Both the position numbers and the translations under genes were made by a program. From Erysipelotrichaceae bacterium (GTDB taxonomy: Bacteria; Bacillota_I; Bacilli_A; Erysipelotrichales; Erysipelotrichaceae): DNA of 64,000 nucleotides. Below, in pieces: positions 17,090 through 62,151 of the stretch (position 1 is its first letter; each line of letters begins with the position of its first letter). Location of the stretch: NCBI GenBank assembly GCA_017431405.1, contig JAFRLB010000077.1, positions 21,515-85,514 on the forward strand, read 5' to 3'. Below the pieces are notes generated by a model. It saw only the letters and a list, made by a program, of their open reading frames with translations. It did no database searches and was not told the DNA's origin.

Positions 17090-17093
17090 CTGC

Positions 17094-19491: not shown

Positions 19492-19493
19492 GA

Positions 19494-34540: not shown

Positions 34541-35326
34541 ATGATTGCTTCAGAAAGACGTATTTACATTTTAGGCAAACTATCCGAAAGAGGAACAATC
34601 TCTTTAACTGAAACAGCTAAAGAGCTACACACATCAGTAGCTACTGTACGCCGTGACTTTGATTCCCTGGCAAAGGAAGATTACATTGAAAGAGTTCATG
34701 GCGGACTTATTCTTAAGGAATCAATGTTCCTGCAGAAAAACATGTATAACAATAACGCCGCCTTGGCCTTGAAGCAAAGACAGAAGAGCAACGAGGCTGA
34801 AAAGCGTGTTGTTGCGCAGGCAGCTGCTTCCCTGGTTAACGATGGCGATTTCATTTATCTTGACACAGGTACATCAATTGCCGCAATCGTTGATTTCTTA
34901 CTGGATAAGAAGATCAGCATCGTTACTCCTAACCTTCTGATATTGGACAGAATCAGAGAACTGGAAGTTGAAATGGATATCGTTCTGATTGGCGGCAAGT
35001 GTAACATTTCCCATGGCTCAACGGTTGGTCCTATTTCCGTACAGTTCATTCAGCAGTTCAATTTCGACAAGGCATTTTTTGGATGCTACGCAATTGATCT
35101 GGCAACCAACATGGCATATGATGATGGCCCTGACTCCTGTTTCCTGAAGGTCAATGCCTTTAACAATACCAATGACAGCTACCTGTTAGCCGATTCATCA
35201 AAGCTAAACAAGAAATCATTCTACAAGTTTACGGAAATATCAAAGTTCAAGAACGTTTTCTGTAACACACCAAAGAACAGCGACTATCGTTTGCCATCAA
35301 ATTTCATAACATTGGACGTTAAATAA
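34541..35326 (+). CDS. DeoR family transcriptional regulator
   Basis: 261 aa. N-terminal HTH is ERRIYILGKLSERGTISLTETAKELHTSVATVRRDFDSL, followed by a C-terminal sugar-phosphate sensor domain. Confidence 0.85.
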   Translation: MIASERRIYILGKLSERGTISLTETAKELHTSVATVRRDFDSLAKEDYIERVHGGLILKESMFLQKNMYNNNAALALKQRQKSNEAEKRVVAQAAASLVNDGDFIYLDTGTSIAAIVDFLLDKKISIVTPNLLILDRIRELEVEMDIVLIGGKCNISHGSTVGPISVQFIQQFNFDKAFFGCYAIDLATNMAYDDGPDSCFLKVNAFNNTNDSYLLADSSKLNKKSFYKFTEISKFKNVFCNTPKNSDYRLPSNFITLDVK

Positions 35327-43085: not shown

Positions 43086-43111
43086 ATTTCTAATCCTCAC
43101 TTATCAAGAAT

Positions 43112-43172
43112 GGTGCACAGACAAAATTCTGTTTGTGCACCATGTAATTATTGTGTTTTGTTCAGACAAAAC
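43112..43172 (-). terminator. Two hairpins after GRE-1 (weak terminator or processing site)
   Basis: ggtgcacagac/gtttgtgcacc (11 bp, one mismatch) and gttttgt/acaaaac. Only a weak T-tract follows. Confidence 0.3.
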
Positions 43173-43189: not shown

Positions 43190-45463
43190 CTATACCTGAT
43201 CGTACATTGTTCTGGACAGTAACTCTAACTGTACGCTCTTGTCCAGGTTGACGAATACGGCAGAGAATCCTGATACACGAACGATCAGGTTCTGGTGGTT
43301 CTCCGGATGTACCATTGCGTCTTCAAGAGCATGGTGATCAATTACAGTTACCATTAACTGACAGCCGCCCTTCTTGAAATAACCCTTGAACAACATGCCG
43401 ATCTTATCAATGTTGTCCTTGAAGAAGTTCTTCTGGAACTTGATGTTCTGAACCTGGCCAACCTGCCAATGAGCATCAAACTTAGCCAGTGAATTGAGCA
43501 TGGCTGTTGGACCGCTCTTGTCAGCGCCACCCTGTGGGTTGTTAGACGGGTTCATGAAGGTCTTGGCCTTTCTGCCATCAGGTGAAGCCCAGGTCTTTAA
43601 GCCCCAGCTGGTATTCTGCTGGTTATTGATGATAACGATGCCATAGTGATGTAAGCCGTGTCTTGGACCAGCTTCATAGTTTTCCTTACCAACTAATTCA
43701 AAGAGGTCATTAGCGATCTTATCAACCGGTTCGCAATCGTTACCATACTTTTCACAGTCCTTCATGTCCTGCTGCATCTGTTCGTATCCTTCAAAGTCAG
43801 CTAATAATGCGTTATTAACTTCTCTTAAGGTGTACTTCTTCTGATCAAACACTAACTTCTTTAAGGCATATAATGAGTCTGAACAGTTGATGTTGCCATA
43901 GGTTTCATTACAGCCGCCTAAGTACTTGATGCCGCCGCCTAATACAGGTTTGCCTCTTTCGATACAATCCTGCATCATGGCACTTACCATCAGATAACTC
44001 ATTTCATTATTCTGCATGATGTATGAATTAGCCTGAGATGTGGCAATGATGTCTGTCATGTACTTGATGAAGTCTGAGAAGTCATTCCAGAACTGTTCAT
44101 ATGTTTCGTATTCTTCCAGTTTCTTTAACTTGAAGTCACCTGCTTTATAACGGTTATCATATGGGTCAATACCTTCATTTAAGAAGATGGTCAAACTCTT
44201 TAACAGGTTATGACCGGCATTTGGTGTACCTACTGTCATGCCCTGTAAGTTCATTTCGCCACAGCCAAACATTGCGTACTGTTCAGCTTCCTTTTCAGAA
44301 ACTCTCATACAGTTAGCCAGGCCTGGAACATGTACTTCATCGTTATAAAGTGTTGGGAATGTAGCACCATCTGCCAAACATTCCATAGCCTTATCCCAGA
44401 TGTCCTTTGGTGTATCTTCATATAGTCTCAAGGTAAACTGAGGTTCTACCTGACGCATTTCCTTACATACGTCAAGGCAGATTCTGGCGAATTCATCAGC
44501 GGCCTTTGGATTATGTCTGCCTCTGCCGCCAACGATCAATCTACCGTTAACAGTGGTTCTCTTGTTTTCAATTAATACCCACAATGAACGAACCAGGTCG
44601 TGTGCTTCTTCCCTGGTAATGAAGCCACTTTCAAGGTCAGCTACCAGATAATCACCAACTACTTCATCAAGTCGGCCATAGTTGATACAACCTGCCAGGT
44701 ATGCGTAAATCCATACACAGTGTAAGGCATCAATGAAGTGAACCGGCTTGTCAACTCTGATTCTCTTTAAGGAATCCTGCATTCTGACAAGTTCATATTT
44801 TCTCTTTTCACTGGCTGTCGGTAACATTCCATCAATCATGTTGATGTAGTGGTCACAGACAACTGTGAACAGATCCATTGCCTCATAAGTAGCCTTTAAG
44901 AAGTTATTGTCAGGTTCTTCTTCGATTCTCTTGGCAATCATTTCCTTCATGCCCTTTACACCGTTGGCACAGAACTTCTTATAATCAAGCATCATGCCTG
45001 AAAGTCTGATACCGAGTAATAAAGGTTCATCTTCTGAATTACTTGGAATAGGTGTTGGGTATACGCCTTTGAAACGTTCGCCAATGGTATTGCCGGTGAA
45101 GTAATCTTCGATTTTGTTCATGCGTTCGATCAGATCAGGATCATCTGTTGATTCACGCAGTAAGTTCAGGTTTCTGTAATGGCAATAGTAACCTACGCCA
45201 CCTACTGAAGTAACACAACCAAAGCCAACCGGCAAGTAGTCAACACGGCATGCCAGCATATCCTTTTCCATGATGCTTCTGCACAGGAATGGATACATTA
45301 ATTTCAGGGCTTCCAATTCTCTGAAGTTCTTATCCATGTCCTTGGTGCGCTCCATCATTTCGATGAAGCTTTCCATCCAGACAACCTGCTGTTCAACAGT
45401 TTTTTCAGCTTTTAACTTGGATTCTATTTCTGCATTAGTTTTTGCATATACTTTCTTTGCCAT
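43190..45463 (-). CDS. Glycyl radical enzyme paralog GRE-1 (type A)
   Basis: 757 aa. C-terminal glycyl motif is NLIVRVSGFSAVFVNL (Gly codon at 43268..43270). The thiyl loop is MFGCGEMNLQG. Confidence 0.9.
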   Translation of the reverse strand: MAKKVYAKTNAEIESKLKAEKTVEQQVVWMESFIEMMERTKDMDKNFRELEALKLMYPFLCRSIMEKDMLACRVDYLPVGFGCVTSVGGVGYYCHYRNLNLLRESTDDPDLIERMNKIEDYFTGNTIGERFKGVYPTPIPSNSEDEPLLLGIRLSGMMLDYKKFCANGVKGMKEMIAKRIEEEPDNNFLKATYEAMDLFTVVCDHYINMIDGMLPTASEKRKYELVRMQDSLKRIRVDKPVHFIDALHCVWIYAYLAGCINYGRLDEVVGDYLVADLESGFITREEAHDLVRSLWVLIENKRTTVNGRLIVGGRGRHNPKAADEFARICLDVCKEMRQVEPQFTLRLYEDTPKDIWDKAMECLADGATFPTLYNDEVHVPGLANCMRVSEKEAEQYAMFGCGEMNLQGMTVGTPNAGHNLLKSLTIFLNEGIDPYDNRYKAGDFKLKKLEEYETYEQFWNDFSDFIKYMTDIIATSQANSYIMQNNEMSYLMVSAMMQDCIERGKPVLGGGIKYLGGCNETYGNINCSDSLYALKKLVFDQKKYTLREVNNALLADFEGYEQMQQDMKDCEKYGNDCEPVDKIANDLFELVGKENYEAGPRHGLHHYGIVIINNQQNTSWGLKTWASPDGRKAKTFMNPSNNPQGGADKSGPTAMLNSLAKFDAHWQVGQVQNIKFQKNFFKDNIDKIGMLFKGYFKKGGCQLMVTVIDHHALEDAMVHPENHQNLIVRVSGFSAVFVNLDKSVQLELLSRTMYDQV

Positions 45464-45472
45464 AAGTCCTCC

Positions 45473-47773
45473 TTATACGCGATCGTACATTGTTCTTGAT
45501 AACAGTTCCTCCTGAACGCTTCTGTCAAGGTTAACGAATACTGCTGAGAAGCCTGAAACACGAACGATAAGGTTCTGATAGTTTTCAGGATGGATCATTG
45601 CTTCTTCAAGAGCGTGGTGGTCAATGACAGTTACCATTAACTGACAGCCGCCCTTCTTGAAGTATGTCTTGAACAGCATTCCGATCTTCTCAATGTTTTC
45701 CTTGAAGAAATTCTTCTGGAACTTGATGTTCTGAACCTGACCAACCTGCCATTTGGCATCAAACTTAGCCAGTGAGTTCAGCATTGCGGTAGGACCGCTT
45801 TTATCTGCACCACCCTGTGGGTTGTTAGATGGGTTTAAGAATACAGTTGAGTTACGGCCATCAGGTGAAGCACCTGTTACCTTACCCCAAGATGTATTAC
45901 CCTGGTTGTTAATGATTACGATACCATAGTAATGTAAGCCCTTTTCGATGCCTAAACGACGGATGTTATAAGAAATCAGTTCGAATACGTCGTTAGCAAT
46001 CTTGTCAACGGCATCAATGTCGTTACCATACTTTTCGCAATCCTTCATATCCTGCTGCATCTGTTCGTAGCCCTTGAAGTCAGCTAATAATGCATTATTA
46101 ACTTCTCTTAAGGTGTACTTCTTTTCATCAAATACCAACTTCTTTAATGCATATAAAGAGTCAGAACAGTTGATGTTACCGAAGGTTTCACAGCAGCCAC
46201 CTAAGTACTTAACGCCGCCATCCAATAAGGCCTTGCCTCTTTCGATACAGCAGTTAGTTAAGATACTTGGGAATAAGAAGCTTACTTCTTCATTCATTAA
46301 CTTGTATGAGTCTACCTGACCCTGAGCACAGCGGTCAGCGTAGTAGATGATCAGCTTAGAGAAGTCTTCAAACAGTTCTTCGTATGTCTGAATTTCTTCT
46401 AACTTCTTGATCTTAACCGGTCCGATACGGTTAACGTTATCAATTGGGTCAACGCCACCATTTAAGTAAATGGTCAGTGCCTTAGTTAAGTTGATAACTG
46501 AGTTAGGTGTACCAATGCCCATTCCTACCAATGTCTGTTCACCACAGCCAAACATTACATACTGTTCGGCATCCTTTTCCGGTACTCTCATACAGTGAGT
46601 CAAACCTGGAACGTGAACTTCGTCATTGTATAATGTTGGGAATGTTGCACCTACTGCCAGACATTCCATGGCCTTATCCCAGATGTCCTTTGGTGTATCT
46701 TCATATAATCTCAAGGTGAACTGAGGTTCAACCTGTCTTGCTTCGTAACAGACATCCAGACAGATTCTGGCAAATTCATCAGCAGCCTTAGGATTTCTAC
46801 GGCCACGTCCGCCAACCATGATACGTCCGTTAACAGTTGTTCTCTTGTTTTCAATTAAGGTCCATAAGCTTCTGACGATCTTATGAGCATATTCTCTGGT
46901 GATGAAGCCTGTTTCAAGGTCCTTTACCAGATATTCGCCTACTACATCGTCAAGACGGCCATAGTTAATACAGCCTGCCAGTAATGCGTACATCCATACT
47001 GCTTCAAGAGCATCCAGGAAATGTTCTGGCTTATTGTAACGAATTGTAGATAATGAATCGATCATTCTCTGTAATTCTACTTTTCTCTGTTCTGTAGCTG
47101 TTTCCTTATCCTTTGTTAACATGTCGATGTAGTAATCACAGCACTTGGTAAACAGATCCAAAGCTTCTAATGAACACTGTAAGAATTCATTGTCAGGTTC
47201 TTCATTTAATCTGTCCTGAATTTCCTTCTTTAAGCCAACGATACCTAAGTCACATAACTTGTTATAGTCAAGCATCATGCCGCTCAAACGGGCACCGGCA
47301 CTAACTGCGGCGTGCTGACCATTAGCTACACCATAGCCGGTAACGATGATGCCATCGGTATAACGGTCAGTAAACTTAACACGGGTGTCTTCTACATGCC
47401 AGTACTTTTCCAGCTCTTCTACTCTTCTGATCATGTCTGGATCAGTTAAGCTGTTTTTAAATACGTTCAGGTTGTAGAAGTGACAGTAGTGACCTACACC
47501 GCCTACTGAAGTAACACAGCCAAAACCAACTGGTAAGAAGTCCATACGACCGGCAATAAGGTCATTTGGCTGAACAGTTCTTAAAAGTCTTGGCATTAAG
47601 ATCTTAAGTCCTTCAATTTCTCTTCTTGGTCTGCTTAAACCAGCCGTTTCCTTATGCTTGGCGGTATAAGCTTCCATGATCTCCAGCTGTTCTTCTGGAG
47701 TCTTTTCAATTGCGAGTTTTTTCTCAATTTCTACATTTGGATGGATAGTAAGTTTCTCCGATTCCTTTGTCAT
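45473..47773 (-). CDS. Glycyl radical enzyme paralog GRE-2 (type B)
   Basis: 766 aa with RVSGFSAVFVNL and MFGCGEQTLVG. 9-nt gap to GRE-1. Confidence 0.9.
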   Translation of the reverse strand: MTKESEKLTIHPNVEIEKKLAIEKTPEEQLEIMEAYTAKHKETAGLSRPRREIEGLKILMPRLLRTVQPNDLIAGRMDFLPVGFGCVTSVGGVGHYCHFYNLNVFKNSLTDPDMIRRVEELEKYWHVEDTRVKFTDRYTDGIIVTGYGVANGQHAAVSAGARLSGMMLDYNKLCDLGIVGLKKEIQDRLNEEPDNEFLQCSLEALDLFTKCCDYYIDMLTKDKETATEQRKVELQRMIDSLSTIRYNKPEHFLDALEAVWMYALLAGCINYGRLDDVVGEYLVKDLETGFITREYAHKIVRSLWTLIENKRTTVNGRIMVGGRGRRNPKAADEFARICLDVCYEARQVEPQFTLRLYEDTPKDIWDKAMECLAVGATFPTLYNDEVHVPGLTHCMRVPEKDAEQYVMFGCGEQTLVGMGIGTPNSVINLTKALTIYLNGGVDPIDNVNRIGPVKIKKLEEIQTYEELFEDFSKLIIYYADRCAQGQVDSYKLMNEEVSFLFPSILTNCCIERGKALLDGGVKYLGGCCETFGNINCSDSLYALKKLVFDEKKYTLREVNNALLADFKGYEQMQQDMKDCEKYGNDIDAVDKIANDVFELISYNIRRLGIEKGLHYYGIVIINNQGNTSWGKVTGASPDGRNSTVFLNPSNNPQGGADKSGPTAMLNSLAKFDAKWQVGQVQNIKFQKNFFKENIEKIGMLFKTYFKKGGCQLMVTVIDHHALEEAMIHPENYQNLIVRVSGFSAVFVNLDRSVQEELLSRTMYDRV

Positions 47774-47791
47774 AAGTTTCTTTCCCTCTTT

Positions 47792-50065
47792 CTATACTCG
47801 GTCGTACATTGTTCTAGATAATAATTCCTGCTGTACGCTCTTATCTAAGTTAACAAATACTGCTGAGAAGCCTGAAACACGAACAATTAAGTTCTGGTAT
47901 TTCTCTGGATGTACCATGGCTTCTTCCAGGGCATGGTGGTCAATAACGGTTACCATTAACTGACAGCCGCCCTTCTTGAAATATGTCTTGAACAGCATTC
48001 CGATCTTTTCCAGGTTTTCCTTGAAGAAGTTCTTCTGGAACTTGATGTTCTGTACCTGGCCAACCTGGAAGTGAGCATCAAACTTAGCCAGTGAGTTCAG
48101 CATGGCTGTTGGACCGCTCTTATCAGCGCCACCCTGCGGGTTGTTTGATGGGTTTAGGAAGACACCGGCATTTCTGCCATCAGGTGAAGCACCGGTCTTC
48201 ATGCCCCAGGTCGTATTACCCTGGTTATTAATGATAACGATGCCATAGTGATGTAAGCCAAATCTTGGACCTGCCTCATAGTTTGCCTTGGCAACAAGTT
48301 CAAACAGATCGTTGGCAATCGTATCAACTGAGTCGATGTCGTTACCATATTTTTCGCAATCCTTCATGTCCTGCTGCATCTTTTCATAACCCTTGAAGTC
48401 AGCTAATAAGGCATTATTTACTTCTCTCAAGGTATATTTCTTTTCGTCAAATACCAACTTCTTAAGTGCATATAATGAGTCTGAACAATTGATGTTGCCG
48501 TATGTTTCATTACAGCCGCCAAGGTACTTGATACCGCCATCTAAGACAGCCTTGCCACGGGCTATGCAATCCTGCATCATGCAGCTGACAAATAAGAAGC
48601 TCATCTCTTCATTCAGCATCTTGTAGCAGTTTGCCTGGGAAGATACGATGCAGTCTGTCTGCCACTTGATGAACTCTGAGAAGTCATTCCAGAACTGTTC
48701 ATATGTTTCGTATTCTTCCAGTTTCTTTAACTTGAAGTCACCTGCTCTGTATACATTGTCATAAGGGTCAACACCGTCATTCATGAAGATGTTGAGGGCC
48801 TTTACCAGGTTATGGCCGCCATTAGGTGTGCCAACGGTCATGCCCTGTAAGTTCATTTCGCCGCAGCCAAACATTGCGTACTGCTCAGCTTCCTTTTCAG
48901 AAACTCTCATGCAATGTGCCAAGCCTGGAACATGAACTTCGTCATTGTATAAGGTTGGGAATGTTGCACCATCTGCCAGGCATTCCATGGCCTTATCCCA
49001 GATGTCCTTTGGTGTATCTTCATATAGTCTCAAGGTGAACTGAGGTTCAACCTGTCTCATTTCCTTACATACATCAAGACAGATCCTTGCGAATTCATCG
49101 GCGGCCTTAGGATTCTTACGGCCTCTGCCGCCAACGATCAGTCTGCCATTTACGGTAGTTCTCTTATTTTCAATTAATACCCATAAGCTTCTTACCAGAT
49201 CATGAGCTTCTTCTCTGGTCAGGAAACCTGATTCAAGGTCATTAACCAAGAAATCACCGACTACATCATCAAGACGGCCATAGTTGATGCATCCTGCCAA
49301 GTAGGCATAGATCCAGATGCAATGAAGTGCATCGATGAAATGTACAGGCTTATCAACTCTGATTCTCTTTAAGGAATCCTGAATTCTGACAAGTTCATAC
49401 TTTCTCTTTTCTGTAGCTGTCGGTAACATGCCATCGATCATATCAATGTAATGGTCACATACTGCCGTAAAGAGATCCATTGCCTCATAGGAAGCCTTAA
49501 GGAAGTTATTGTCAGGTTCCTCTTCAATTCTTCTGGCCAGTTCTTCCTTCATGCCCTTTACGCCATTGGCACAGAACTTGTTATAGTCAAGCATCATGCC
49601 GCTTAAACGGATGACACCCAGAGTTGAACCGTTATCGGAACCGTCAATGTATGGTTTGCCATACTTCTGGTCAAAACGTTCAACAATGGTATTTCCTGTA
49701 TAGTAGTCTTCAATCTTATTCAATCTTTCAATCAGATCAGGATCGTCTGTTGATTCACGTAATAAGTTTAAATTTCTGTAGTGGCAGTAATAACCAACGC
49801 CACCTACTGAAGTAACACAACCAAAGCCAACCGGCAAATAGTCAACTCTGCATGCCAGCATGTCCTTGTCCATGATGCTTCTGCATAGGAATGGATACAT
49901 TAACTTCAAAGCTTCAAGTTCTCTGAAGCTCTTATCCATGTCTTTGGTACGTTCCAGCATGTCGACGAAGCTTTCCATCCAGGCAACCTGCTGTTCAACA
50001 GTTTTTTCAGCCTTAAGTTTTGCTTCTATTTCAACATTGGTTTTCTGATAGACTTTTTTAGCCAT
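47792..50065 (-). CDS. Glycyl radical enzyme paralog GRE-3 (type A')
   Basis: 757 aa with RVSGFSAVFVNL and MFGCGEMNLQG. The N-terminus is nearly identical to GRE-1. Confidence 0.9.
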   Translation of the reverse strand: MAKKVYQKTNVEIEAKLKAEKTVEQQVAWMESFVDMLERTKDMDKSFRELEALKLMYPFLCRSIMDKDMLACRVDYLPVGFGCVTSVGGVGYYCHYRNLNLLRESTDDPDLIERLNKIEDYYTGNTIVERFDQKYGKPYIDGSDNGSTLGVIRLSGMMLDYNKFCANGVKGMKEELARRIEEEPDNNFLKASYEAMDLFTAVCDHYIDMIDGMLPTATEKRKYELVRIQDSLKRIRVDKPVHFIDALHCIWIYAYLAGCINYGRLDDVVGDFLVNDLESGFLTREEAHDLVRSLWVLIENKRTTVNGRLIVGGRGRKNPKAADEFARICLDVCKEMRQVEPQFTLRLYEDTPKDIWDKAMECLADGATFPTLYNDEVHVPGLAHCMRVSEKEAEQYAMFGCGEMNLQGMTVGTPNGGHNLVKALNIFMNDGVDPYDNVYRAGDFKLKKLEEYETYEQFWNDFSEFIKWQTDCIVSSQANCYKMLNEEMSFLFVSCMMQDCIARGKAVLDGGIKYLGGCNETYGNINCSDSLYALKKLVFDEKKYTLREVNNALLADFKGYEKMQQDMKDCEKYGNDIDSVDTIANDLFELVAKANYEAGPRFGLHHYGIVIINNQGNTTWGMKTGASPDGRNAGVFLNPSNNPQGGADKSGPTAMLNSLAKFDAHFQVGQVQNIKFQKNFFKENLEKIGMLFKTYFKKGGCQLMVTVIDHHALEEAMVHPEKYQNLIVRVSGFSAVFVNLDKSVQQELLSRTMYDRV

Positions 50066-50077
50066 TGAGATCCTCCT

Positions 50078-52375
50078 TTATACCTTGTCGTACATGGTTC
50101 TGGACAGTAACTCCAGCTGTACGTTCTTAGATAAGTTAACAAATACGGCTGAGAATCCTGATACACGGACAATTAAGTTCTGATGGTTTTCCGGATGTAT
50201 CATGGCATCCTCTAATGCATGGTGGTCAATTACGGTTACCATCAACTGACAGCCACCCTTCTTGAAGTAGCCCTTGAACAGTAAGCCGATCTTTTCAATG
50301 TTATCCTTGAAGAAGTTCTTCTGGAACTTGATGTTCTGTACCTGACCTACCTGATAATGTGGGTCAAACTTAACCAGTGAGTTAAGCATTGCGGTTGGGC
50401 CGCTCTTATCAGCGCCACCCTGTGGGTTATTGGATGGGTTCATGAATACTCTTGAATTACGTCCATCCGGTGAAGCACTGGTGCTGTTGCCCCATAAGGT
50501 ATTGGTCTGGTTATTAATGATAACGATGCCATAGTAATGTAAGCCCATTTCCGGACCCATTTCATAGTTACGCTTAGCTACTAAGTTATAGACATCGTTG
50601 GCAATTTCATCTGCGTATGGATCATCATTGCCATATTTTGGTGCATCCTTCAGATCCTGCTGCATCTGTTCATAACCGACAAAGTCTGCCAGTAAGGCAT
50701 TATTGATTTCTCTTAAGGTATATTTCTTATCTTCAAAGACAAGTTTCTTAATGGCTACCAATGAGTCAGAAGCATTGATATTACCATAGGTTTCATTACA
50801 GCCGCCTAAGTATCTGACGCCGCCATCCAATAATGGCTTGCCTCTGGCAATACAGTCATTCATCAGGTTACTTACAAACAGGAATGAAACCTGAGTGTTC
50901 ATGAAGTGGTAACCCATTACCTGCTGCTTAACACACATGTCATTGTAGTAGTCACTGAGCTTGCAATAGTCTTCCCAGAACTCTTCGTATGTATGATAGT
51001 CTTCCAGTTTTCTTAAGATGACCGGACCAGCCTTATAACGGCCGTCAATTGGGTCAACGCCTTCATTCATCTGAATGGTGACTAACTTTAACAGGTTGAT
51101 TACGGCGTTTGGTGTACCTACGGTATAGGTCTGTAAGTTCATTTCGCCGCAGCCAAACATTGCGTACTGTTCAGCTTCCTTTTCCGGTACTCTCATGCAA
51201 TGTGCCAAGCCAGGAATGGTTACTTCATCGTTGTATAATGTCGGGAATGTAGCGCCATCAGCTAAACAATCCATTGCCTTATCCCAGATGTCCTTAGGTG
51301 TATCTTCATATAATCTCAGAGTAAACTGAGGTTCTACCTGTCTCATTTCCTTACATACATCAAGACAGATTCTAGCGAATTCATCTGCAGCAGCTGGGTT
51401 TCTGCGGCCACGGCCACCAACGATCAGTCTGCCGTTAACGGTTGTTCTCTTATTTTCAATTAATACCCATAAGCTTCTGACGATCTTATGAGCTTCTTCC
51501 TTTGTTAAATAACCTGATTCAAAGTCCTTAACCAGATAATCACCTAAGACATCATCAAGACGGCCATAGTTGATACAGCCGGCTAATAATGCATAGAGCC
51601 ATGTTGCTTCCAGGGCATCCATGAAATGAACAGGCTTATCTGTTCTGATCGTACATAAGGAATCCTTGATTCTCTGCAATTCATACTTTCTCTGTTCATC
51701 AGCTGTTTCCATGTCTTTATCAATCATGTCGATATAGTAGTCACAGCAGACTGTAAACAGATCCATTGCTTCTAATGAACACTGTAAGAATTCATTATCT
51801 GGTTCTTCTTCCAGTCTCTTTTTAATTACATTCTTTAAACCGGTAATACCTAGGTCACACAGCTTGTTATAGTCAAGCATCATGCCACTTAATCTAGGAC
51901 CTGCTGTAATAGGTGCGTTGTATATTGTCTGCATGTTATCGCCATAGACGACTTCAGGACGATAGTTACGGCTGTACTGGGTTCTGGTATCATACTTTGT
52001 CCAGTATTCATCTAAAGCGTCGATGCGTTTTAACAGATCTTCTTCTTCGATGCTGTCACGTAATTTATATAAATTGGCAAAGTGGCAATAATGACCTACC
52101 CCGCCAACAGAGGTTACTGCGCCAAATCCAATCGGCAGAAAATCCATTCTTCCTGCCAGTAAATCATCAGGTAAAATGGTTCTTAAAAGTCTTGGATATA
52201 TTACTTTCAAGCACTCCAGTTCTCTTCTTGACTTACTGGATTGAGAGAACTTGCGGTGCGTCTCGGTATATAATTCCATAATTTCAACCTGTTCTCTTGG
52301 AGATTTTTCACAGGCCAGTTTTGATTTGATTTCTACATTTGTATGCTCTCTCAGTTTTCTTGTTGCTAAAGACAT
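50078..52375 (-). CDS. Glycyl radical enzyme paralog GRE-4 (type B')
   Basis: 765 aa with RVSGFSAVFVNL and MFGCGEMNLQT. The N-terminus is GRE-2-like. Confidence 0.9.
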   Translation of the reverse strand: MSLATRKLREHTNVEIKSKLACEKSPREQVEIMELYTETHRKFSQSSKSRRELECLKVIYPRLLRTILPDDLLAGRMDFLPIGFGAVTSVGGVGHYCHFANLYKLRDSIEEEDLLKRIDALDEYWTKYDTRTQYSRNYRPEVVYGDNMQTIYNAPITAGPRLSGMMLDYNKLCDLGITGLKNVIKKRLEEEPDNEFLQCSLEAMDLFTVCCDYYIDMIDKDMETADEQRKYELQRIKDSLCTIRTDKPVHFMDALEATWLYALLAGCINYGRLDDVLGDYLVKDFESGYLTKEEAHKIVRSLWVLIENKRTTVNGRLIVGGRGRRNPAAADEFARICLDVCKEMRQVEPQFTLRLYEDTPKDIWDKAMDCLADGATFPTLYNDEVTIPGLAHCMRVPEKEAEQYAMFGCGEMNLQTYTVGTPNAVINLLKLVTIQMNEGVDPIDGRYKAGPVILRKLEDYHTYEEFWEDYCKLSDYYNDMCVKQQVMGYHFMNTQVSFLFVSNLMNDCIARGKPLLDGGVRYLGGCNETYGNINASDSLVAIKKLVFEDKKYTLREINNALLADFVGYEQMQQDLKDAPKYGNDDPYADEIANDVYNLVAKRNYEMGPEMGLHYYGIVIINNQTNTLWGNSTSASPDGRNSRVFMNPSNNPQGGADKSGPTAMLNSLVKFDPHYQVGQVQNIKFQKNFFKDNIEKIGLLFKGYFKKGGCQLMVTVIDHHALEDAMIHPENHQNLIVRVSGFSAVFVNLSKNVQLELLSRTMYDKV

Positions 52376-52423
52376 AGTATCACTCGCTTTCTTCAGTTGT
52401 GGATAGTTTATAAATACAGTTAC

Positions 52424-52457
52424 AGCTGTCCCTAATATTTTCCAATTAAGGACAGCT
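52424..52457 (-). other. Conserved intercistronic hairpin after NanE-like gene 1
   Basis: 13-bp stem agctgtccctaat/attaaggacagct with one wobble pair. No T-tract follows. Confidence 0.5.
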
Positions 52458-52476
52458 TATTTTCAGATTTTTATGC

Positions 52477-53256
52477 TTATTCAGCCTTGTTTTCAGTTAC
52501 ATCACCGAACCAGATCATTTCATCCTTATGCCAGTCTGTGGTGTAGCGGTTCAATGCGTCAGTAAACTTTCTGACGATCAAGTGTGGACGGGTAATTGCA
52601 CTGCCGACAACGATGGCATCTGCACCCATGTACATAGCCTTGACAGCATCCATTGGGTATTCAATATTGCCTTCCATGACAACGAATGCTCTTTCTCTTA
52701 AGCCCTTTGCCATTCTGGCAACTGCGCCATAATCAGGACGCTTGTAGCCAAGAGCCTTAGATTCCTTAGTAATACCCATACATGTTGTAGCAACGATATC
52801 AGCACCTAAGTCAATTGCATGTTCAGCATTTTCGTATGAATCGATATCAGCGAAAATTAATGCATCAGGAATTTCCTTCTTGATTTCCTTGATCAGATCA
52901 CAGCGTGGAACGCCCTTATGGTTAGGTAACTGAGTAGCGTCTAATGCGATGATCTGAGCACCAGCATCATATAATGCCTTGGCATGTTCGATAGTTGGAG
53001 TCATGATTATTGTGCCAACTGTATCGTAATAGATCTTGTGTAAGCCTACGATCGGCAGATTAACTGCAGCGTGAATAGCAGCTACCTGTTCTGGCTTGTT
53101 TGCACGGATACCAACAGCTCCGCCATATTCAGCAGCTCTTGCCATCATAACAACAGTTCTGCCGTCATTATGAATTGGGTCATGTGGTTCAGTCTGGCAT
53201 GAAACGATCATTCCGCCTCTCATGCTGTCTAATAATGCCTTCTTATCAATACTCAT
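52477..53256 (-). CDS. NanE-family putative N-acylmannosamine-6-phosphate 2-epimerase, paralog 1
   Basis: 259 aa. Motifs: MIVSCQ, GGAVGIRAN, LPIVGLHK, TPT, ALDAT, EGNI, VVGSAITRP. All are NanE hallmarks. Confidence 0.8.
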   Translation of the reverse strand: MSIDKKALLDSMRGGMIVSCQTEPHDPIHNDGRTVVMMARAAEYGGAVGIRANKPEQVAAIHAAVNLPIVGLHKIYYDTVGTIIMTPTIEHAKALYDAGAQIIALDATQLPNHKGVPRCDLIKEIKKEIPDALIFADIDSYENAEHAIDLGADIVATTCMGITKESKALGYKRPDYGAVARMAKGLRERAFVVMEGNIEYPMDAVKAMYMGADAIVVGSAITRPHLIVRKFTDALNRYTTDWHKDEMIWFGDVTENKAE

Positions 53257-53324
53257 TATTTTTTTCCTTTCTTGTTTTACATGAACAAAGAGGCTCTGTG
53301 AGCCATTCCTCTTTATAGATTTAC

Positions 53325-53356
53325 AGCTGCCCTTTGCCAGGCGGCAAAGGACAGCT
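53325..53356 (-). other. Conserved intercistronic hairpin after NanE-like gene 2
   Basis: 14-bp stem agctgccctttgcc/ggcaaaggacagct with one wobble pair. Its flanks are homologous to the 52424 hairpin. Confidence 0.5.
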
Positions 53357-53369
53357 TATTCAGTTTTGA

Positions 53370-54143
53370 TTATTCAGCTTTTGTTACATCGCCATACCAT
53401 GTGGCTTCTGCTTCATGCCAGTCTGTGGTGTAGCGGTTCAGAGCGTCAGTGAACTTCTTAACGATTAAGTGTGGACGAGTAATTGCACTACCAACTACGA
53501 TAGCATCAACACCCATGTACATAGCCTTGATTGCATCTTCAGGAGTTTCAATGTGACCTTCCATAACAACGAAAGCTCTGTCCTTTAAGCCCTTAGCTAA
53601 TCTTGCTACTGCAGCGTAGTCTGGACGCTTGTAGCCCTGAGCCTTTGATTCAGGAGTGCCGCCCATACATGTTGTAGCAACGATATCAGCACCTAATTCG
53701 ATTGCGTGTTCAGCATTTTCGTATGTGTCGATATCAGCGAAGATCAGTGCATCTGGGATTTCCTTCTTGATTTCCTTGATCAGGTCGCAACGTGGTACAC
53801 CTAAATGGTTCAGACGCTGTGTGCTGTCTAAGGCAATGATCTGTGCACCAGCTTCATATAAAGCCTTAGCATGTTCAATGGTTGGAGTCATGATAATTTC
53901 GCCCATTGTATCGTAGTAGATCTTATGTAAGCCTACGATTGGCAGTTTAACTGCAGCATGGATAGCAGCAACCTGTTCAGGCTTGTTTGAACGGATACCA
54001 ACAGCTCCACCATATTCAGCAGCTTTTGCCATAGTAACAACTGTCCTTCCCTCATCATGGATAGGGTCATGAGGTTCGGTCTGGCATGAAACGATCAATC
54101 CACCTCTCATGCTGTCTAAAAGTGCCTTTTTGTCAAAACTCAT
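53370..54143 (-). CDS. NanE-family putative N-acylmannosamine-6-phosphate 2-epimerase, paralog 2
   Basis: 257 aa with the same motif set as paralog 1 and most positions identical to it. Confidence 0.8.
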   Translation of the reverse strand: MSFDKKALLDSMRGGLIVSCQTEPHDPIHDEGRTVVTMAKAAEYGGAVGIRSNKPEQVAAIHAAVKLPIVGLHKIYYDTMGEIIMTPTIEHAKALYEAGAQIIALDSTQRLNHLGVPRCDLIKEIKKEIPDALIFADIDTYENAEHAIELGADIVATTCMGGTPESKAQGYKRPDYAAVARLAKGLKDRAFVVMEGHIETPEDAIKAMYMGVDAIVVGSAITRPHLIVKKFTDALNRYTTDWHEAEATWYGDVTKAE

Positions 54144-54201
54144 TTTCTGTTTTACCTTCTTTCTATTTTGATATAGAGTGAATCTATTTATGGCCTAAAT
54201 C

Positions 54202-55116
54202 TTAACCGCCTGCCTGAACCTTGAGTCCCAGCTTATCGCCAAGAGCTTCATAATGCTTCAGGTCAGCCTTGCTCATCATCTTTGTACCCTTTAAGGCATA
54301 ATCACGGCCTAACTGTTCATACTTGTTTTCGCCTAAGTTATGGTAAGGTAAAAGATTTACTTCAGGTATGTTCAGACTGGCTGCCATTTCAATGATGGCT
54401 GTCAGTACTTCTTCTTCATAGTTGTAACCAGGGATAACCGGTACACGGATAACGATCTTTTCAGCGGCGATCTCTGCCAGCTTACGTAAGTTTTCCTGGA
54501 TTCTCCAGCCGTTACCACCGGTGATTTCCTTGATCTTTTCAGGAGTTGACTGCTTCATGTCGAACAGGAACTTGTCAATTAAAGGTTCTGCCTTCTTCAT
54601 TTTTTCCCAATCAGTATCGCCTGTTGTTTCAACAGCTGTGCTGATGCCTAATTCCTTGGCTCTCTGTAAGATGTTGTAGAAGAAATCAAACTGTACGAAT
54701 GGTTCACCACCAGATACGGTAATACCGCCGCCTGATACATCGTAGTAATCCTTGTCTCTGGAAATGTAATCAATTACTTCATCAACAGTCTTGATGTCAC
54801 CGATGAAGTTGATTGCCTTACCCGGACAGTTTCTTTCACAGGTTTTACAGCCAATACACTTGCTGCGGTCAAATTCCAGATGATCACCGACAATTGTAAT
54901 GGCATGCTGTGGACAGTTACGTGCACATGTTCCACACTTCAAGCATTTCTTAACGTTGTACATCAGCTGTGGTTTGATCTGCTGAGATTCTGGGTTTGCA
55001 CACCAAGGACATCTTAATGGACATCCCTGAATGAAAACTGTTGTTCTGATACCAGGACCATCATGGATGGCAAATCTTTCCATTTCCATGACACTACCCT
55101 TAACTACGTCTGCCAT
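54202..55116 (-). CDS. Glycyl radical enzyme activating enzyme (radical SAM, with ferredoxin-like insert)
   Basis: Start trimmed to MADVVKGSVMEMERFAIHDGPGIRTTVFIQGCPLRCPWCANPES after the RBS GGAGG. Also has CLKCGTCARNCP and CIGCKTCERNCP clusters. Confidence 0.9.
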   Translation of the reverse strand: MADVVKGSVMEMERFAIHDGPGIRTTVFIQGCPLRCPWCANPESQQIKPQLMYNVKKCLKCGTCARNCPQHAITIVGDHLEFDRSKCIGCKTCERNCPGKAINFIGDIKTVDEVIDYISRDKDYYDVSGGGITVSGGEPFVQFDFFYNILQRAKELGISTAVETTGDTDWEKMKKAEPLIDKFLFDMKQSTPEKIKEITGGNGWRIQENLRKLAEIAAEKIVIRVPVIPGYNYEEEVLTAIIEMAASLNIPEVNLLPYHNLGENKYEQLGRDYALKGTKMMSKADLKHYEALGDKLGLKVQAGG

Positions 55117-55393: not shown

Positions 55394-56029
55394 CTATACG
55401 TATTTTTCAACTTCCAGGATGGAAGTGATTATTACATCAGCTTCCTGCTGTCTGGCAAAGCCATCAACATCTCTTAAGGCAATTGTAAACGCCCCGGCCG
55501 CCTTGCCAGCCCTGATGCCTAATGGTGAATCCTCAATTACTATTGCCTCTTCAGGTAAGACATTATGATCTCTGATCGCTTCTTCAAAAACGAATGGATC
55601 AGGCTTGATATGCCCTGTTTCCGTACCGCTGTAGAACTTATCGAAATAATGCATCAGATTTGTTTTTTCCAGGATATCGCGGCCAATTACCGGTACGGCA
55701 TTGGTAGCGATGCTGCATGGAATGTTTTTGTTTTTTAAATAGATAAGCAGTTCTTCAATGTTCTCTGTCAGAAGCTCATGCGGATCTTCCGGATAATACT
55801 TGAACCAAGGTCCGTGAATCTTATCCCAATTTCTATATGCCTCCTGATTGCCGAAAGTAGCATCCATGACATTACGGAAATCCAGATGACTGACACCCAT
55901 GAAATTTGAGATGTCATCATGTGTATAACTTACCCCTGCCTCATCGAGTTGCTTCATGAATACACGCATGTTAAGCGTTTCAGTCTGGGCAATTACACCG
56001 TCAAAGTCAAATATTACCAGCTTAATCAT
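55394..56029 (-). CDS. HAD-IA family hydrolase (beta-phosphoglucomutase / sugar phosphatase-like)
   Basis: Start trimmed to MIKLVIFDFDGVIAQTE after the RBS GGAGGG. Confidence 0.75.
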   Translation of the reverse strand: MIKLVIFDFDGVIAQTETLNMRVFMKQLDEAGVSYTHDDISNFMGVSHLDFRNVMDATFGNQEAYRNWDKIHGPWFKYYPEDPHELLTENIEELLIYLKNKNIPCSIATNAVPVIGRDILEKTNLMHYFDKFYSGTETGHIKPDPFVFEEAIRDHNVLPEEAIVIEDSPLGIRAGKAAGAFTIALRDVDGFARQQEADVIITSILEVEKYV

Positions 56030-56249
56030 AATACCCTCCAAATACACTCTTAATAGTATATACAATATATCACATTACCATTTTAATGTATATACATATA
56101 ACTGATTATTTATCACAATATATAAAAAATCTGCCTTTTATAAAAAGCAAATAATTATTTAATATGTTTAAAACTCACATTTTTTCAAAATTAGTATATA
56201 CATTTATAATAATCTGTTATACTGATGTACAAAAAGAGGTAAAGAACTT

Positions 56250-56834
56250 ATGAGATTGGCTATTGATATTGACGGATGCATGACAGATGACAACAGATTC
56301 AGACTTGAACAGCATGGAAAATACTTATACGAACACAACCTGCCGGAAATGGATCTGCCATACGAAAGCGAGATAAAATGTGGCTATTTTACTGAAGAAC
56401 AGGTAAACGAATTCTGGAATGCCACATTCTTTGAATACATCGAAAACGTGCAGCCTTTGTTATATGTTTCTGAAGTCATGCATAAGCTTAAGGAAGACGG
56501 CCATACAATTTTCATCTGTACAGGCCGTGTCGGTTCTACCAGGCAGGACGAATATGGCGAAAAAGTAAGAAACATTACCATTAACTGGTTAAAGAAATAC
56601 GACATTGTTTATGATGATATCATTTTTTCGGGTTTTCCTAAGATCAATTACATACGTCCATACAACTGCGATCTGTTTGTTGAAGACAATACACGTACTG
56701 CTACAATACTGGCTAAGGAAATGCCCGTGCTCTTATTTGATAATCCTTATAACGTTAACTACGAATGTGATAATGTAACCAGGATATTCAGCTGGTACGA
56801 CATTTACCGCCACATAAAAGAAGGAACCTACTAA
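56250..56834 (+). CDS. HAD-superfamily 5'(3')-nucleotidase-like protein (NT5C type)
   Basis: 194 aa, MRLAIDIDGCMTD nucleophile motif, with length and layout like the NT5C family. Confidence 0.5.
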   Translation: MRLAIDIDGCMTDDNRFRLEQHGKYLYEHNLPEMDLPYESEIKCGYFTEEQVNEFWNATFFEYIENVQPLLYVSEVMHKLKEDGHTIFICTGRVGSTRQDEYGEKVRNITINWLKKYDIVYDDIIFSGFPKINYIRPYNCDLFVEDNTRTATILAKEMPVLLFDNPYNVNYECDNVTRIFSWYDIYRHIKEGTY

Positions 56835-58603: not shown

Positions 58604-59101
58604 TTATAAATTTTTCAAAATGCTATCCAAGTTCACTTTGGCATCAGACGGAATTGTACGGGAGTCAACATTATCATTGCCAACCAGTTCAACGATTCTC
58701 TTCAAACAAACAATGTCGTCGTCATCGAAAATCATGCCCTTCCACAGTTGTTTCCCATCTTTTTTCTTCTGGGCGCCGCCAACATTAACTGTGCCGACAT
58801 TTTCCGGACCGATTCCCTCAATGAACTTAACTGTGTCACGCAAATTTTTGCATACGCCGAAAAGTTGCATGTCAGCAGTTTTTGGGTTTTTTACCAATTC
58901 GATTGCTTCATCAATAGTTCTGATGGCAATTTTCATGCCCTGAGGCTTTGCCAGCTTAACTGCCATTTTACCGATTTCATCATTTACCAATGCATCATTA
59001 GCAATAAGGATCGCATTTGGTGCAATGATGTTCAGCCATGACATAGCTACCTGTCCGTGAATCAATCTGTAATCAGTACGTAATACTTTAACTTTTGCCA
59101 T
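58604..59101 (-). CDS. PTS mannose family IIB component
   Basis: 165 aa. The phospho-His motif is LRTDYRLIHGQV. Confidence 0.85.
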   Translation of the reverse strand: MAKVKVLRTDYRLIHGQVAMSWLNIIAPNAILIANDALVNDEIGKMAVKLAKPQGMKIAIRTIDEAIELVKNPKTADMQLFGVCKNLRDTVKFIEGIGPENVGTVNVGGAQKKKDGKQLWKGMIFDDDDIVCLKRIVELVGNDNVDSRTIPSDAKVNLDSILKNL

Positions 59102-59147: not shown

Positions 59148-59879
59148 TTACCTATTATTTCTGATTTCATCTACGGTTATACCCAGAACAACCGGTGTTG
59201 ACTTAAAACCAATGCCCATTCTGTCTATACCCATATCTACCAATTCAAGGAAGTGCTCACGGGTACGTATTGCCCCGCTGCCCTTGATCTTGCATCTGCC
59301 CTTTGCCCCAGCCATCATAGCCTGGACAACTTCATTAGATGCACCTACTGATGGAGCGCCGGTGAAGAATCCGGTAGATGACTTAACAAAGTCAGCACCT
59401 GCTTCAGCAACCAGATCAGCACCTTTTTCTATCTGTTCAAGTGTTAATGAATCTGTTTCCAGGATGACTTTCAGTTCAGAGCCCATCTGATGACAGGCAT
59501 CCGCAACTTCCTTTACATCCTTCTGGAAGCGTTCATATTCACCACTTCTTAATAAGCCATAGTTAGAAACAACATCGATTTCATCAACCTTGCACTTATC
59601 AAGAACGATTCTCATCTGTTCAATCTTTGATTCTGTTGTACTGGTTCCAAACGGGAAGTCTACTACTACGCAGATCCCGGTATTTGTCCCCTTGGTCATT
59701 TCAATGGCGATGTCCAGATATGAAGGATTGATGCAAACGGTCTTGCAATTGAAGTCGATGCCTTCCTGGATATATCTCTTTACATCATCCTGGGTAAATT
59801 CTGGTTTTAATACTGACTGGTCAATGTATCTTCCTAATTCCTGCCATGTCATTTCACAAGCTTTTTTATCAGGTTTCAT
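59148..59879 (-). CDS. DeoC/LacD-family class I aldolase (second DeoC-like paralog)
   Basis: 243 aa. Motifs IDQSVLKPE, VCINPSY, and the Schiff-base Lys in ADFVKSSTGF. Confidence 0.8.
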   Translation of the reverse strand: MKPDKKACEMTWQELGRYIDQSVLKPEFTQDDVKRYIQEGIDFNCKTVCINPSYLDIAIEMTKGTNTGICVVVDFPFGTSTTESKIEQMRIVLDKCKVDEIDVVSNYGLLRSGEYERFQKDVKEVADACHQMGSELKVILETDSLTLEQIEKGADLVAEAGADFVKSSTGFFTGAPSVGASNEVVQAMMAGAKGRCKIKGSGAIRTREHFLELVDMGIDRMGIGFKSTPVVLGITVDEIRNNR

Positions 59880-59889: not shown

Positions 59890-60516
59890 CTATTCTTCGT
59901 CTACAAATTCACTTGCCACTTTCGGCATAATTACTATCTTGAATTCGCCATTTTCATAACGGAACTTTGTTATTGAACCGTTCGGGAAGATGTGCTTAGG
60001 GTCCCCGCCTAATACGTCTTCCATGGCTTTTAATACTCTGTTAATGAGAACTAAAGAGAAGTTACCGTGTGATACTAATAAGATATTGTCATTGTCGTTA
60101 GCTTCTTCAACATACTGATTTAAGGCTTCACGGCATCTGACTTCAATTTCATCACTGGTTTCACCACCAATGTCAGCCCAGCGTTCCTCTCTTTTTCTGG
60201 CCCAGAAATCATCGATGTCTATTGTCTTACCTGGCTTGCCATCATATAAGCCGAAATTCTTTTCTCTGATTCTGGTGTCCTGTTCCAGTTTTAAGTATGG
60301 ATGGTATTGTAAAACGATCTCAGCAGTTTCTATTGCTCTTGACAATGTGCTGGCGATCGCTCTGTTAAACTTGATATTCTTCAAAGATTCAGCAGCATCC
60401 TGAGCCTGTTGTTTACCATGCTCATTTAAGTCTGTAGGAGAAATACCACTAATGATGCCATTTGCGTTGGCAATAGTTTCACCGTGTCTTACCAAAAAGA
60501 AATTTACAGTCTTCAT
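59890..60516 (-). CDS. Histidine phosphatase family protein (phosphoglycerate mutase-like)
   Basis: Start trimmed to MKTVNFFLVRHGETIAN (RHG motif) after the RBS GGAG. Also has LLVSHGN. Confidence 0.8.
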   Translation of the reverse strand: MKTVNFFLVRHGETIANANGIISGISPTDLNEHGKQQAQDAAESLKNIKFNRAIASTLSRAIETAEIVLQYHPYLKLEQDTRIREKNFGLYDGKPGKTIDIDDFWARKREERWADIGGETSDEIEVRCREALNQYVEEANDNDNILLVSHGNFSLVLINRVLKAMEDVLGGDPKHIFPNGSITKFRYENGEFKIVIMPKVASEFVDEE

Positions 60517-60886
60517 AAATTTACTCCACAACCGTTTCAATCAATTTCCATATCACCCAAATGATTGCGGTTTTTAAAGATCTTTAGTGTTTACTACCCT
60601 TTTCAATTGTTAAAAACATCAATTTATATCGAATATTATTCGTTTTTTGCTTCTTTTTTTCACATTTAAAAGCTTTGTTGTCTATATTATTTCACCATTT
60701 TGCGTGTTTGTCTAGTTTTTCTAATCTTTTGTGACGCTTTTTGTTATTGTAACTAGCTCATTTGTTTACATTATTACCATGATACAACCATAAATTCAAC
60801 ATAATTGCATCATTGATGAATCACTGTGAAATATTTTAATCTATTTTGTTGCATTATCTATCAAAATATGCAAATATAAAGATGTA

Positions 60887-62141: not shown

Positions 62142-62151
62142 GTAAACAAGT

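Follow-up and report, generated by a model that had tools for sequence, protein, structure and literature searches.

A 64,000-nucleotide (nt) stretch from a gut Erysipelotrichaceae bacterium (the window; GenBank assembly GCA_017431405.1, contig JAFRLB010000077.1, positions 21,515 to 85,514) carries four consecutive genes for glycyl radical enzymes (GREs), here called A to D, together with two genes for NanE-like sugar-phosphate epimerases and a single gene for a GRE-activating radical S-adenosylmethionine (SAM) enzyme. What is new is an uncharacterized GRE subfamily with defined conserved partners, present here in a unique four-copy, single-activase array. In the reading that we favor, with a probability of roughly 0.6, the four GREs are lineage-specific tandem isozymes: co-expressed, substrate-diversified enzymes of the Cys-x-Glu eliminase/isomerase type that act on hexose-like 6-phosphates. 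In gut microbiomes, GREs rank with the most abundant enzyme families, and no function has been assigned to whole clades (PMC13450708).

Four intact GREs and a single activase in one array

An earlier note on this DNA, made from its letters, had described four consecutive minus-strand open reading frames (ORFs) of 757, 766, 757 and 765 amino acids (aa) with an activase gene and two NanE-family genes upstream on the same strand. The ORF coordinates and profile scores confirmed this layout, which comprises the following features:

43190..45463, minus strand: GRE paralog A, 757 aa; Cys401-Gly-Glu403, radical Gly732
45473..47773, minus strand: GRE paralog B, 766 aa; Cys410-Gly-Glu412, radical Gly741
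47792..50065, minus strand: GRE paralog C, 757 aa; Cys401-Gly-Glu403, radical Gly732
50078..52375, minus strand: GRE paralog D, 765 aa; Cys409-Gly-Glu411, radical Gly740
52477..53256, minus strand: NanE-like sugar-6-phosphate 2-epimerase, copy 1, 259 aa; 85% identity to copy 2
53370..54143, minus strand: NanE-like sugar-6-phosphate 2-epimerase, copy 2, 257 aa; residues of Clostridium perfringens NanE kept
54202..55116, minus strand: the sole GRE-activating radical SAM enzyme, 304 aa from ATG, with a ferredoxin-like insert
43110..43143, minus strand: hairpin with a 14-bp stem just past GRE A; a weak candidate for the transcript end

The GRE genes are spaced by 9 nt (A-B), 18 nt (B-C) and 12 nt (C-D), with a Shine-Dalgarno-like GGAGG or GAGGG in each spacer, and probably sit in one operon. 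The operon boundaries are only suggested, because scans of the array region found promoter- and terminator-like sites no more often than in shuffled sequence. Both GRE domains were found in all four ORFs by the Pfam search that the note had proposed (PF02901, E 1e-103 to 1e-114; PF01228, E 1e-23 to 1e-25). The four proteins have in common the glycyl-radical fingerprint LIVRVSGFSAVFVNL and the FGCGE loop, and the superfamily motif RVxG[FWY] reads RVSGFSAVFVNL in each of them. There is no frameshift or internal stop in A to D of the window, and the catalytic motifs are kept, again as the note had it.

The activase scored 333 bits with TIGR02494 (cut-off 174). Its start is most likely the ATG at 55116, in agreement with the gene call of an independent assembly; in the mechanical ORF list the frame reaches a TTG at 55134. 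The NanE-like proteins scored 213-218 bits with NF002231 (cut-off 189), and in an alignment they keep R43, K66, D126, E180 and R208 (C. perfringens numbering). Note that a similar hairpin follows each NanE-like gene (52376-52476 and 53257-53369), starting with AAGCTGTCC and ending with GGACAGCTG or GGGCAGCTG, which points to the gene plus its 3' stem-loop as the duplicated unit. The hairpin may act in processing, stability or attenuation.

The array is old and all four copies have been kept

Protein identity among the paralogs is 67-71% (A versus B and D, 67-69%), except for the pair A-C with 87%, and DNA identity is 68-82%. Synonymous divergence (dS) is 1.06-1.65 for every pair, close to saturation and without low-dS tracts, and the ratio of nonsynonymous to synonymous divergence (dN/dS) is 0.09-0.22, with the value of 0.09 for A-C. 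Two blocks, at residues about 300-400 and in the C-terminal 120 residues, are 88-98% identical among the paralogs. The proportion of synonymous differences (pS) inside these blocks is 0.3-0.9, which rules out gene conversion as their source; the blocks are thus held by selection rather than by recent gene conversion. The C-terminal glycyl-radical domain is 88-96% identical despite the synonymous divergence. A near-invariant domain of this kind would be expected if one activase must recognize all four GREs.

Three further assemblies of the same species-level lineage contain the full array, with its four GREs, two NanE-like genes and one activase (L001, L002 and L011; 97.5-98.6% nt identity), as does one of a second lineage or species (L094; 82.6%). 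These four assemblies, obtained from different samples and by different pipelines, have an identical gene order, and partial arrays occur on two shorter JGI metagenome contigs (L095 and L096). The source organism is a close relative of the metagenome-assembled genome RGIG4363, which stems from the jejunum of roe deer. When orthologs of the two lineages are compared, dN/dS is 0.03-0.06 at a dS of 0.8-1.6 for every GRE, both NanE copies and the activase; for A and C it is 0.04. From the old divergence, the recurrence across species and the low ortholog dN/dS we infer that all four copies are functional genes that have been maintained for a long time.

The earlier note had held open that the array might be an assembly duplication. 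A collapsed or duplicated repeat is refuted by the DNA divergence of the paralogs and by the recurrence of the array across assemblies.

In one strain (L011, JAFUCG010000032.1, 97% identical) paralog C (2353-4626) contains an in-frame stop at codon 169 without an indel (NGV*GMKEE versus NGVKGMKEE). The window, L001, L002 and L094 have an intact C, and the stop in L011 is either a strain-level pseudogene or a consensus error of the metagenome-assembled genome (MAG).

The GREs belong to a subfamily that fits no named family

No named GRE family fits A to D. The best NCBIfam model, TIGR01774 (PFL2/glycerol dehydratase subfamily), gave 268-291 bits against a cut-off of 678. Equivalog models for CutC, HypD, HpfG/HpsG, IAD, HPAD and PFL1 gave 88-260 bits (cut-offs 994-1150), and PRK09983, the PflD equivalog, gave 194-234 bits (cut-off 1109). 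The four proteins share 22-26% identity with YbiW and PflD of E. coli, and the best sequence matches in the PDB were glycerol and propanediol dehydratases (216-243 bits). An AlphaFold2 model of B (pLDDT 84), compared with the PDB by Foldseek, resembled all solved eliminases, isomerases and decarboxylases alike (TM 0.80-0.83, identity 20-24%). Judged by these comparisons, A to D belong to a distinct, uncharacterized subfamily. The note had been unable to assign the GREs by eye and had proposed structure prediction as a check; the profile scores and the equidistant model uphold its view, and all four GREs fall below every equivalog and subfamily cut-off.

No paper characterizing a NanE-linked GRE was found in a full-text literature search, two key primary papers lying outside that search. 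A superfamily review of June 2026 likewise lists no NanE-linked GRE type and names YbiW and PflD as the only known sugar-phosphate GREs (PMC13450708).

A Cys-x-Glu loop, as opposed to the Cys-Cys of formate lyases, defines the GRE 1,2-eliminases and isomerases (PMC13450708), and all four GREs have it, in line with the note's classification of the loop as eliminase-type. Across the family the loop reads CGE in 61 sequences, including A to D, and CTE in 58. The note had set the GCGE found here against GCVE in characterized eliminases; this difference held for the sequences compared, with GCVE in glycerol dehydratase and PflD and GCIE in YbiW. Further family motifs are DxLPxGFGxVTSxGGVGHYC near the N-terminus, ARLSGMMLDY, AG[CV]INYGRLDD, IEN[KR]RTTVNGR followed by a deletion of ~10 residues, FGC[GT]E, GTPN, IVI[IS]NNQ and NPSNNPQGGADKxGPTA. 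The general-acid His of strand beta-1 (His164 of glycerol dehydratase, also present in PflD and YbiW) aligns with the Gly of the invariant ARLSGMMLDY.

The glycerol and 1,2-propanediol dehydratases (1R8W, 5I2G) resemble the family in the Cys-x-Glu loop and in having an activase with a ferredoxin-like insert, and they are its best PDB matches (235-243 bits; TM 0.83). In contrast, identity to them is 23-24%, and His164, Ser282 and Asp447 of glycerol dehydratase are replaced by Gly, Cys and Asn, respectively. The family context also differs, consisting of sugar-phosphate genes without microcompartment or diol genes.

Paralogs A and C have diverged at conserved positions

In a neighbor-joining tree, A to D and their close orthologs form one clade with the order ((A,C),D),B. 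Its sister is a fifth GRE of the family, encoded in the MAG of L011 on another contig (L012, JAFUCG010000076.1, 2703-5021), followed by a subclade that is linked to a phosphotransferase system (PTS) and lacks NanE. The L012 protein is 64% identical to B, and its neighbors are a Cof-type HAD phosphatase and a GntR regulator; neither NanE nor an activase is visible on the 7.4-kb contig. The closest sister subclade (L091, L092, L093 and L013; 60-64% identity) lies next to a sigma-54 gene and has the gene order PTS IIA-IIB-IIC-IID, GRE, activase, HAD, without NanE. Genes for a Tn916-like integrase and excisionase adjoin the GRE locus of L091 and L093, and loci of this type may be mobile.

Residues of the four paralogs were compared with those of 113 more distant family members. 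A and C depart from the family at many positions that are 95-100% conserved (Y36F, H40M/L, G75C, H95Y, W125F/Y, D129T, K131G/V, Q257H and Y478M/Q); B and D have retained the ancestral state. Clade-specific changes that A-D have in common include Y378F and, immediately ahead of the Cys loop, P407M. Beside the loop the paralogs differ from each other: Cys+3/+4 is MN in A, C and D and QT in B, and Cys+6 to +8 is QGM in A and C, VGM in B and QTY in D. At Cys+17, His occurs in A/C-type sequences only (6 of 119 motif-matched sequences), the other 113 having Ile, Leu, Met or Val. This position aligns with Phe in PflD, Ile in YbiW and Tyr506 in CutC, which we take, from the CutC structures, to be an active-site residue. 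The His of A and C is therefore predicted to occupy an active-site position.

Since A and C are under strong constraint, both toward each other and toward their orthologs, the pattern in these sequences speaks for a new specificity that has been retained, and against decay. The specificities themselves, as the note had proposed in speaking of substrate diversification, would be expected to differ between the copies, and the high dS, the low ortholog dN/dS and the A/C-specific changes all fit this.

These results also bear on whether the four GREs could catalyze the same reaction, either to support a high flux or as spares for enzyme cleaved by oxygen. Joint expression from a probable operon, with its 9-18 nt spacers and its single activase, would suit such a role, as would the canonical active-site motifs, which are identical in A to D. 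However, the proteins differ by 13-33% at near-saturated dS, no gene-conversion tracts are present, each copy has its own ortholog in the second species at a dN/dS of 0.03-0.06, and A and C carry replacements at family-invariant positions and beside the Cys loop. Because of this age, divergence and copy-specific constraint, gene dosage or spare copies are an unlikely explanation.

The family is widespread, with one GRE per locus

A protein search returned more than 1500 relatives, all annotated just as 'pyruvate formate lyase family protein'. Scanning one genome per species gave 345 family loci in Bacillota, Bacteroidota, Actinomycetota and Spirochaetota. For the neighborhood counts we used the best 80 of the 345 loci, 79 of them outside the window lineage; their ORFs were called and searched with the window proteins, and the remaining neighbors were clustered. 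The Bacillota among the best 80 include Erysipelotrichaceae, Lachnospiraceae, Oscillospiraceae, Enterococcus, Listeria and Lacticaseibacillus, and further loci come from Bacteroidota, Actinomycetota and Spirochaetaceae.

Outside the window lineage, each of the 79 loci has a single GRE of the family. An activase adjoins the GRE in 69 of the 79, and 59-68 contain a NanE-like gene, separated from the downstream GRE by a median of 3 nt; a glucokinase-like ROK kinase lies directly upstream of NanE in 30. Other recurring neighbors in the 79 loci were:

AraC regulator: 29
DeoR regulator beside the GRE: 26
sugar ABC transporter: 18
Gfo/Idh/MocA oxidoreductase: 17
glycoside hydrolase family 94 (GH94)-like protein: 14
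Man-type PTS: 10
Cof HAD: 10

Direct look-ups located the NanE-GRE-activase core in Enterococcus hulanensis, Propionispora vibrioides and Clostridium vincentii as well. In the conserved unit, one GRE and one activase are combined with a NanE-like epimerase and with a kinase or PTS. Because the family is widespread and normally single-copy, it is the fourfold GRE and twofold NanE expansion, not the family, that is peculiar to the window lineage. The single GRE in all 79 other loci bears out the note's premise of one GRE per activase as the rule and, together with the tree, its proposal of an expanded family: the four-copy array is a real lineage-specific expansion.

The same count speaks to a joint action of the four GREs, by successive eliminations on one scaffold or in mixed dimers or tetramers. 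Such a mode would be in keeping with the tight co-transcription of the four genes, with the generally dimeric state of GREs (PMC13450708) and with the two epimerase copies, which could serve different steps. However, no characterized GRE pathway has consecutive GRE steps (PMC13450708), and because one GRE suffices everywhere else in the family, we consider sequential or hetero-oligomeric action improbable.

The GRE-linked NanE-like proteins form a separate subgroup, scoring ~150 bits with the Pfam NanE model, as opposed to 227 bits for a canonical NanE encoded in L087 (Erysipelotrichales bacterium). Since the canonical and the GRE-linked type coexist in that locus, the specificity of the latter may differ from N-acetylmannosamine 6-phosphate/N-acetylglucosamine 6-phosphate. 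The GRE-linked proteins resemble the NanK-NanE step of sialic acid catabolism in that a NanE barrel with its catalytic residues comes after a ROK kinase or PTS, but are 25-30 residues longer than the sialic-acid NanE. None of the genes inspected in the vicinity of the array encodes NanA, a sialidase or a sialic acid transporter.

L087 contains three systems within one 16-kb stretch (5007-20736). The first is a module of DeoR, NanE-like protein, GRE and activase, the second a set of a divergent GRE of the PflD type, its activase and an FSA-type aldolase (FsaA), and the third a second DeoR with the canonical NanE. The stretch looks like an island for related sugar phosphates. An FSA gene was found only here, beside the true PflD-type GRE.

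Regarding other partners, the Gfo/Idh/MocA protein had 1,5-anhydro-D-fructose reductase among its best PDB matches, with weak scores of 53-65 bits. PDB sequence searches gave no relative for the GH94-like partner or for the GH63-like partner.

Sugar-phosphate genes around the array

The array is flanked by genes that suggest sugar-phosphate metabolism:

59890..60540, minus strand: histidine phosphatase superfamily protein, first gene of the upstream operon
59148..59879, minus strand: DERA-like class I aldolase; TIGR00126 170 bits (cut-off 117)
58604-59101 (IIB), 57791-58582 (IIC) and 56938-57798 (IID), minus strand: Man-family PTS
56250-56834, plus strand, between the operons: 194-aa protein with an N-terminal DIDG motif, without a Pfam or NCBIfam match; putative phosphatase
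55394..56065, minus strand: HAD hydrolase of the beta-phosphoglucomutase (beta-PGM)/sugar-phosphatase subfamily; a homologous HAD follows the activase in L091
42438-43100, minus strand: 220-aa protein with a hydrophobic N-terminus, directly after GRE A, without a Pfam or NCBIfam match; in the same place in L002 and L011
41592..42428, minus strand: Cof-type HAD sugar phosphatase, which recurs in 10 family loci

Two minus-strand operons probably span positions ~60540 to 36900. The upstream operon has the order histidine phosphatase, DERA-like aldolase and Man-type PTS IIB, IIC and IID. The downstream operon begins with the beta-PGM-type HAD, the activase, the two NanE-like genes, the four GREs, the 220-aa protein and the Cof HAD, and ends with the flavoenzyme, GH63-like hydrolase and NagA-like amidohydrolase listed further below.

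The aldolase conserves the equivalents of D102, K167 and K201, that is, the Schiff-base Lys and the Asp/Lys relay, and in this and in passing the TIGR00126 cut-off it resembles DeoC. In contrast to DeoC, to which it is 26% identical (E. coli protein), it is not in a nucleoside (deoABD) context and belongs to a GRE-linked subgroup of its own: orthologs with 54-61% identity adjoin the GRE in four other loci from different phyla, and this subfamily spans at least three phyla.

The four putative phosphatases around the array (Cof HAD, beta-PGM-type HAD, DIDG protein and histidine phosphatase) represent an unusually heavy investment in sugar-phosphate hydrolysis.

Proposed reaction and alternative substrates

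The presence of a ROK kinase or Man-type PTS with NanE-like, HAD and DERA-like proteins fits the class of substrate, sugar phosphates, that the note had suggested. In the pathway that we propose, the Man-type PTS (the ROK kinase in other taxa) would generate a hexose-like 6-phosphate, and the NanE-like enzyme would invert the stereocenter alpha to its carbonyl by deprotonation and reprotonation. The one activase would install the glycyl radical on each of the four GREs. The thiyl radical of the GRE would then take a hydrogen from a carbinol carbon while the loop Glu deprotonates the hydroxyl, and a neighboring C-O (possibly C-N) leaving group would depart to give a deoxy-carbonyl sugar phosphate. 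Thiyl hydrogen abstraction, deprotonation by Glu and vicinal elimination are common to the Cys-x-Glu GREs (PMC13450708). The DERA-type aldolase would cleave the deoxy-carbonyl product, in the case of a 2-deoxy-aldohexose 6-phosphate to acetaldehyde and a tetrose 4-phosphate, and the HAD and Cof phosphatases may relieve sugar-phosphate stress. The four co-transcribed isozymes would differ in their preference for substrate or stereoisomer and be served by one activase.

By analogy, the DERA-type partner would point to a 2-deoxy-aldose phosphate, as an FSA-type partner would point to the 1-deoxy-ketose of YbiW and PflD. We tentatively entertain a bolder version, to which we give less credence than to the isozyme reading as such: that the locus represents a third kind of radical sugar-phosphate chemistry, for example conversion of a hexose-like 6-phosphate to a 2-deoxy-aldose phosphate that is split by DERA, with the paralogs and epimerases forming a multi-substrate hub that operates through one activase.

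Anhydrohexitol, hexitol, 2,5-anhydrohexitol, N-acetylhexosamine and Heyns/Amadori 6-phosphates were considered as substrates. We commit to none of them, because no candidate accounts jointly for NanE, the missing His and the DERA-type aldolase.

The closest functional precedent is provided by YbiW and PflD, the 'GRE isomerases' that act as C-O lyases on 1,5-anhydroglucitol-6-phosphate and 1,5-anhydromannitol-6-phosphate (Ma et al. 2024, cited after PMC13450708). They share with the family a PFL-like GRE with a Cys-x-Glu loop and have a PTS, an activase, an aldolase and a Cof/HAD phosphatase nearby. The window layout parallels E. coli ybiV-ybiW-ybiY-fsaA and frwCB-pflDC-fsaB, the Cof HAD being analogous to ybiV beside ybiW. 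The differences are that the His of their GHIIIDY/AHLAVNF motif is Gly in the family's ARLSGMMLDY, that their loop is CVE or CIE rather than CGE or CTE, and that the family has the ~10-residue deletion, located before the LIVGG strand. Furthermore, the partner aldolase is FSA-type at YbiW/PflD and DERA-type in the window, the window PTS is Man-type and that at PflD Frw-type, and only the family has an obligate-looking NanE-like partner.

This precedent raises the question whether the family performs a non-orthologous 'anhydroglycolysis', in which the GREs cleave 1,5-anhydroglucitol-6-phosphate, 1,5-anhydromannitol-6-phosphate or other anhydrohexitol 6-phosphates and the paralogs correspond to epimers. 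The parallel arrangement of PTS, GRE, activase, aldolase and HAD phosphatase, the weak match of the Gfo/Idh/MocA partner to 1,5-anhydro-D-fructose reductase and the glucokinase-like ROK kinase are compatible with this, and the reductase match and the PflD-FsaA neighbor in L087 are two weak hints toward anhydro-sugar metabolism. However, the low identity to YbiW and PflD with PRK09983 scores far below the cut-off, the DERA-type rather than FSA-type aldolase and the Gly in place of the conserved His are at odds with it. In L087 a true PflD-type GRE with FsaA stands side by side with the family cluster, and the two are thus not redundant. NanE catalysis requires a carbonyl beside the epimerized center, and a NanE-type enzyme could not epimerize an anhydroalditol, which has no carbonyl. 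On balance, we regard anhydroglycolysis as rather unlikely.

Several points weigh against the favored reading of substrate-diversified isozymes acting on hexose-like 6-phosphates. None of the candidate chemistries considered explains by itself what NanE does. In the closest sister subclade (L013, L091) NanE is missing altogether, and the DERA-like gene occurs in only about 5-8 of the 80 loci. With the general-acid His replaced by Gly, a simple dehydratase or ether-lyase mechanism may not transfer to the family; note that the active-site positions were mapped by sequence alignment, not from coordinates. Finally, co-transcription of the four copies argues against their separate regulation by substrate.

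The locus points to an undescribed anaerobic route for the breakdown of unusual sugars. It marks a third, putative clade of sugar-phosphate GREs, one that is widespread, has a cleanly conserved context and is carried by cultured organisms. Among the cultured hosts of the single-copy module are Enterococcus hulanensis, Listeria immobilis, Faecalicoccus pleomorphus DSM 20574, Mediterraneibacter hominis, Peptacetobacter hominis, Propionispora vibrioides and Clostridium vincentii. The array provides a natural specificity series, with ancestral-like B and D versus derived A and C and their new, predicted active-site His, and the combination of one activase with four targets is a natural case that bears on the question of activase specificity. 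If the 2-deoxy-aldose version were true, it would constitute a new branch of 'radical glycolysis'. At present the locus offers a promising starting point for finding new radical sugar chemistry and leaves the understanding of GREs unchanged.

Other neighboring genes

The remaining genes of the downstream operon and the adjoining plus-strand genes are:

39709-41589, minus strand: flavoenzyme of the old yellow enzyme (OYE)/FAD type, BaiCD/enoate-reductase-like with Fe-S; 363 bits (cut-off 825)
38018-39691, minus strand: GH63-like hydrolase
36900-38009, minus strand: NagA-like amidohydrolase; 160 bits (cut-off 226)
35405-36868, plus strand: Sde182 nucleoside-hydrolase-like protein, only in the window lineage
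34541..35326, plus strand: DeoR-family regulator

The genes for the flavoenzyme, the GH63-like hydrolase and the NagA-like amidohydrolase were found in the window lineage only (L011; L002 ends after the flavoenzyme).

Divergent from the aldolase/PTS operon, a plus-strand unit (61053-63733) consists of metK (SAM synthetase) and, after 10 nt, IIC and IID of a second Man-type PTS; L002 is alike. SAM is the co-substrate of the activase, and this link may be coincidental. A further DERA gene beside a system of the glycyl-radical type is found in E. coli K-12 (4615000-4621000), where deoC adjoins yjjI (DUF3029) and yjjW, a putative glycyl-radical activase.

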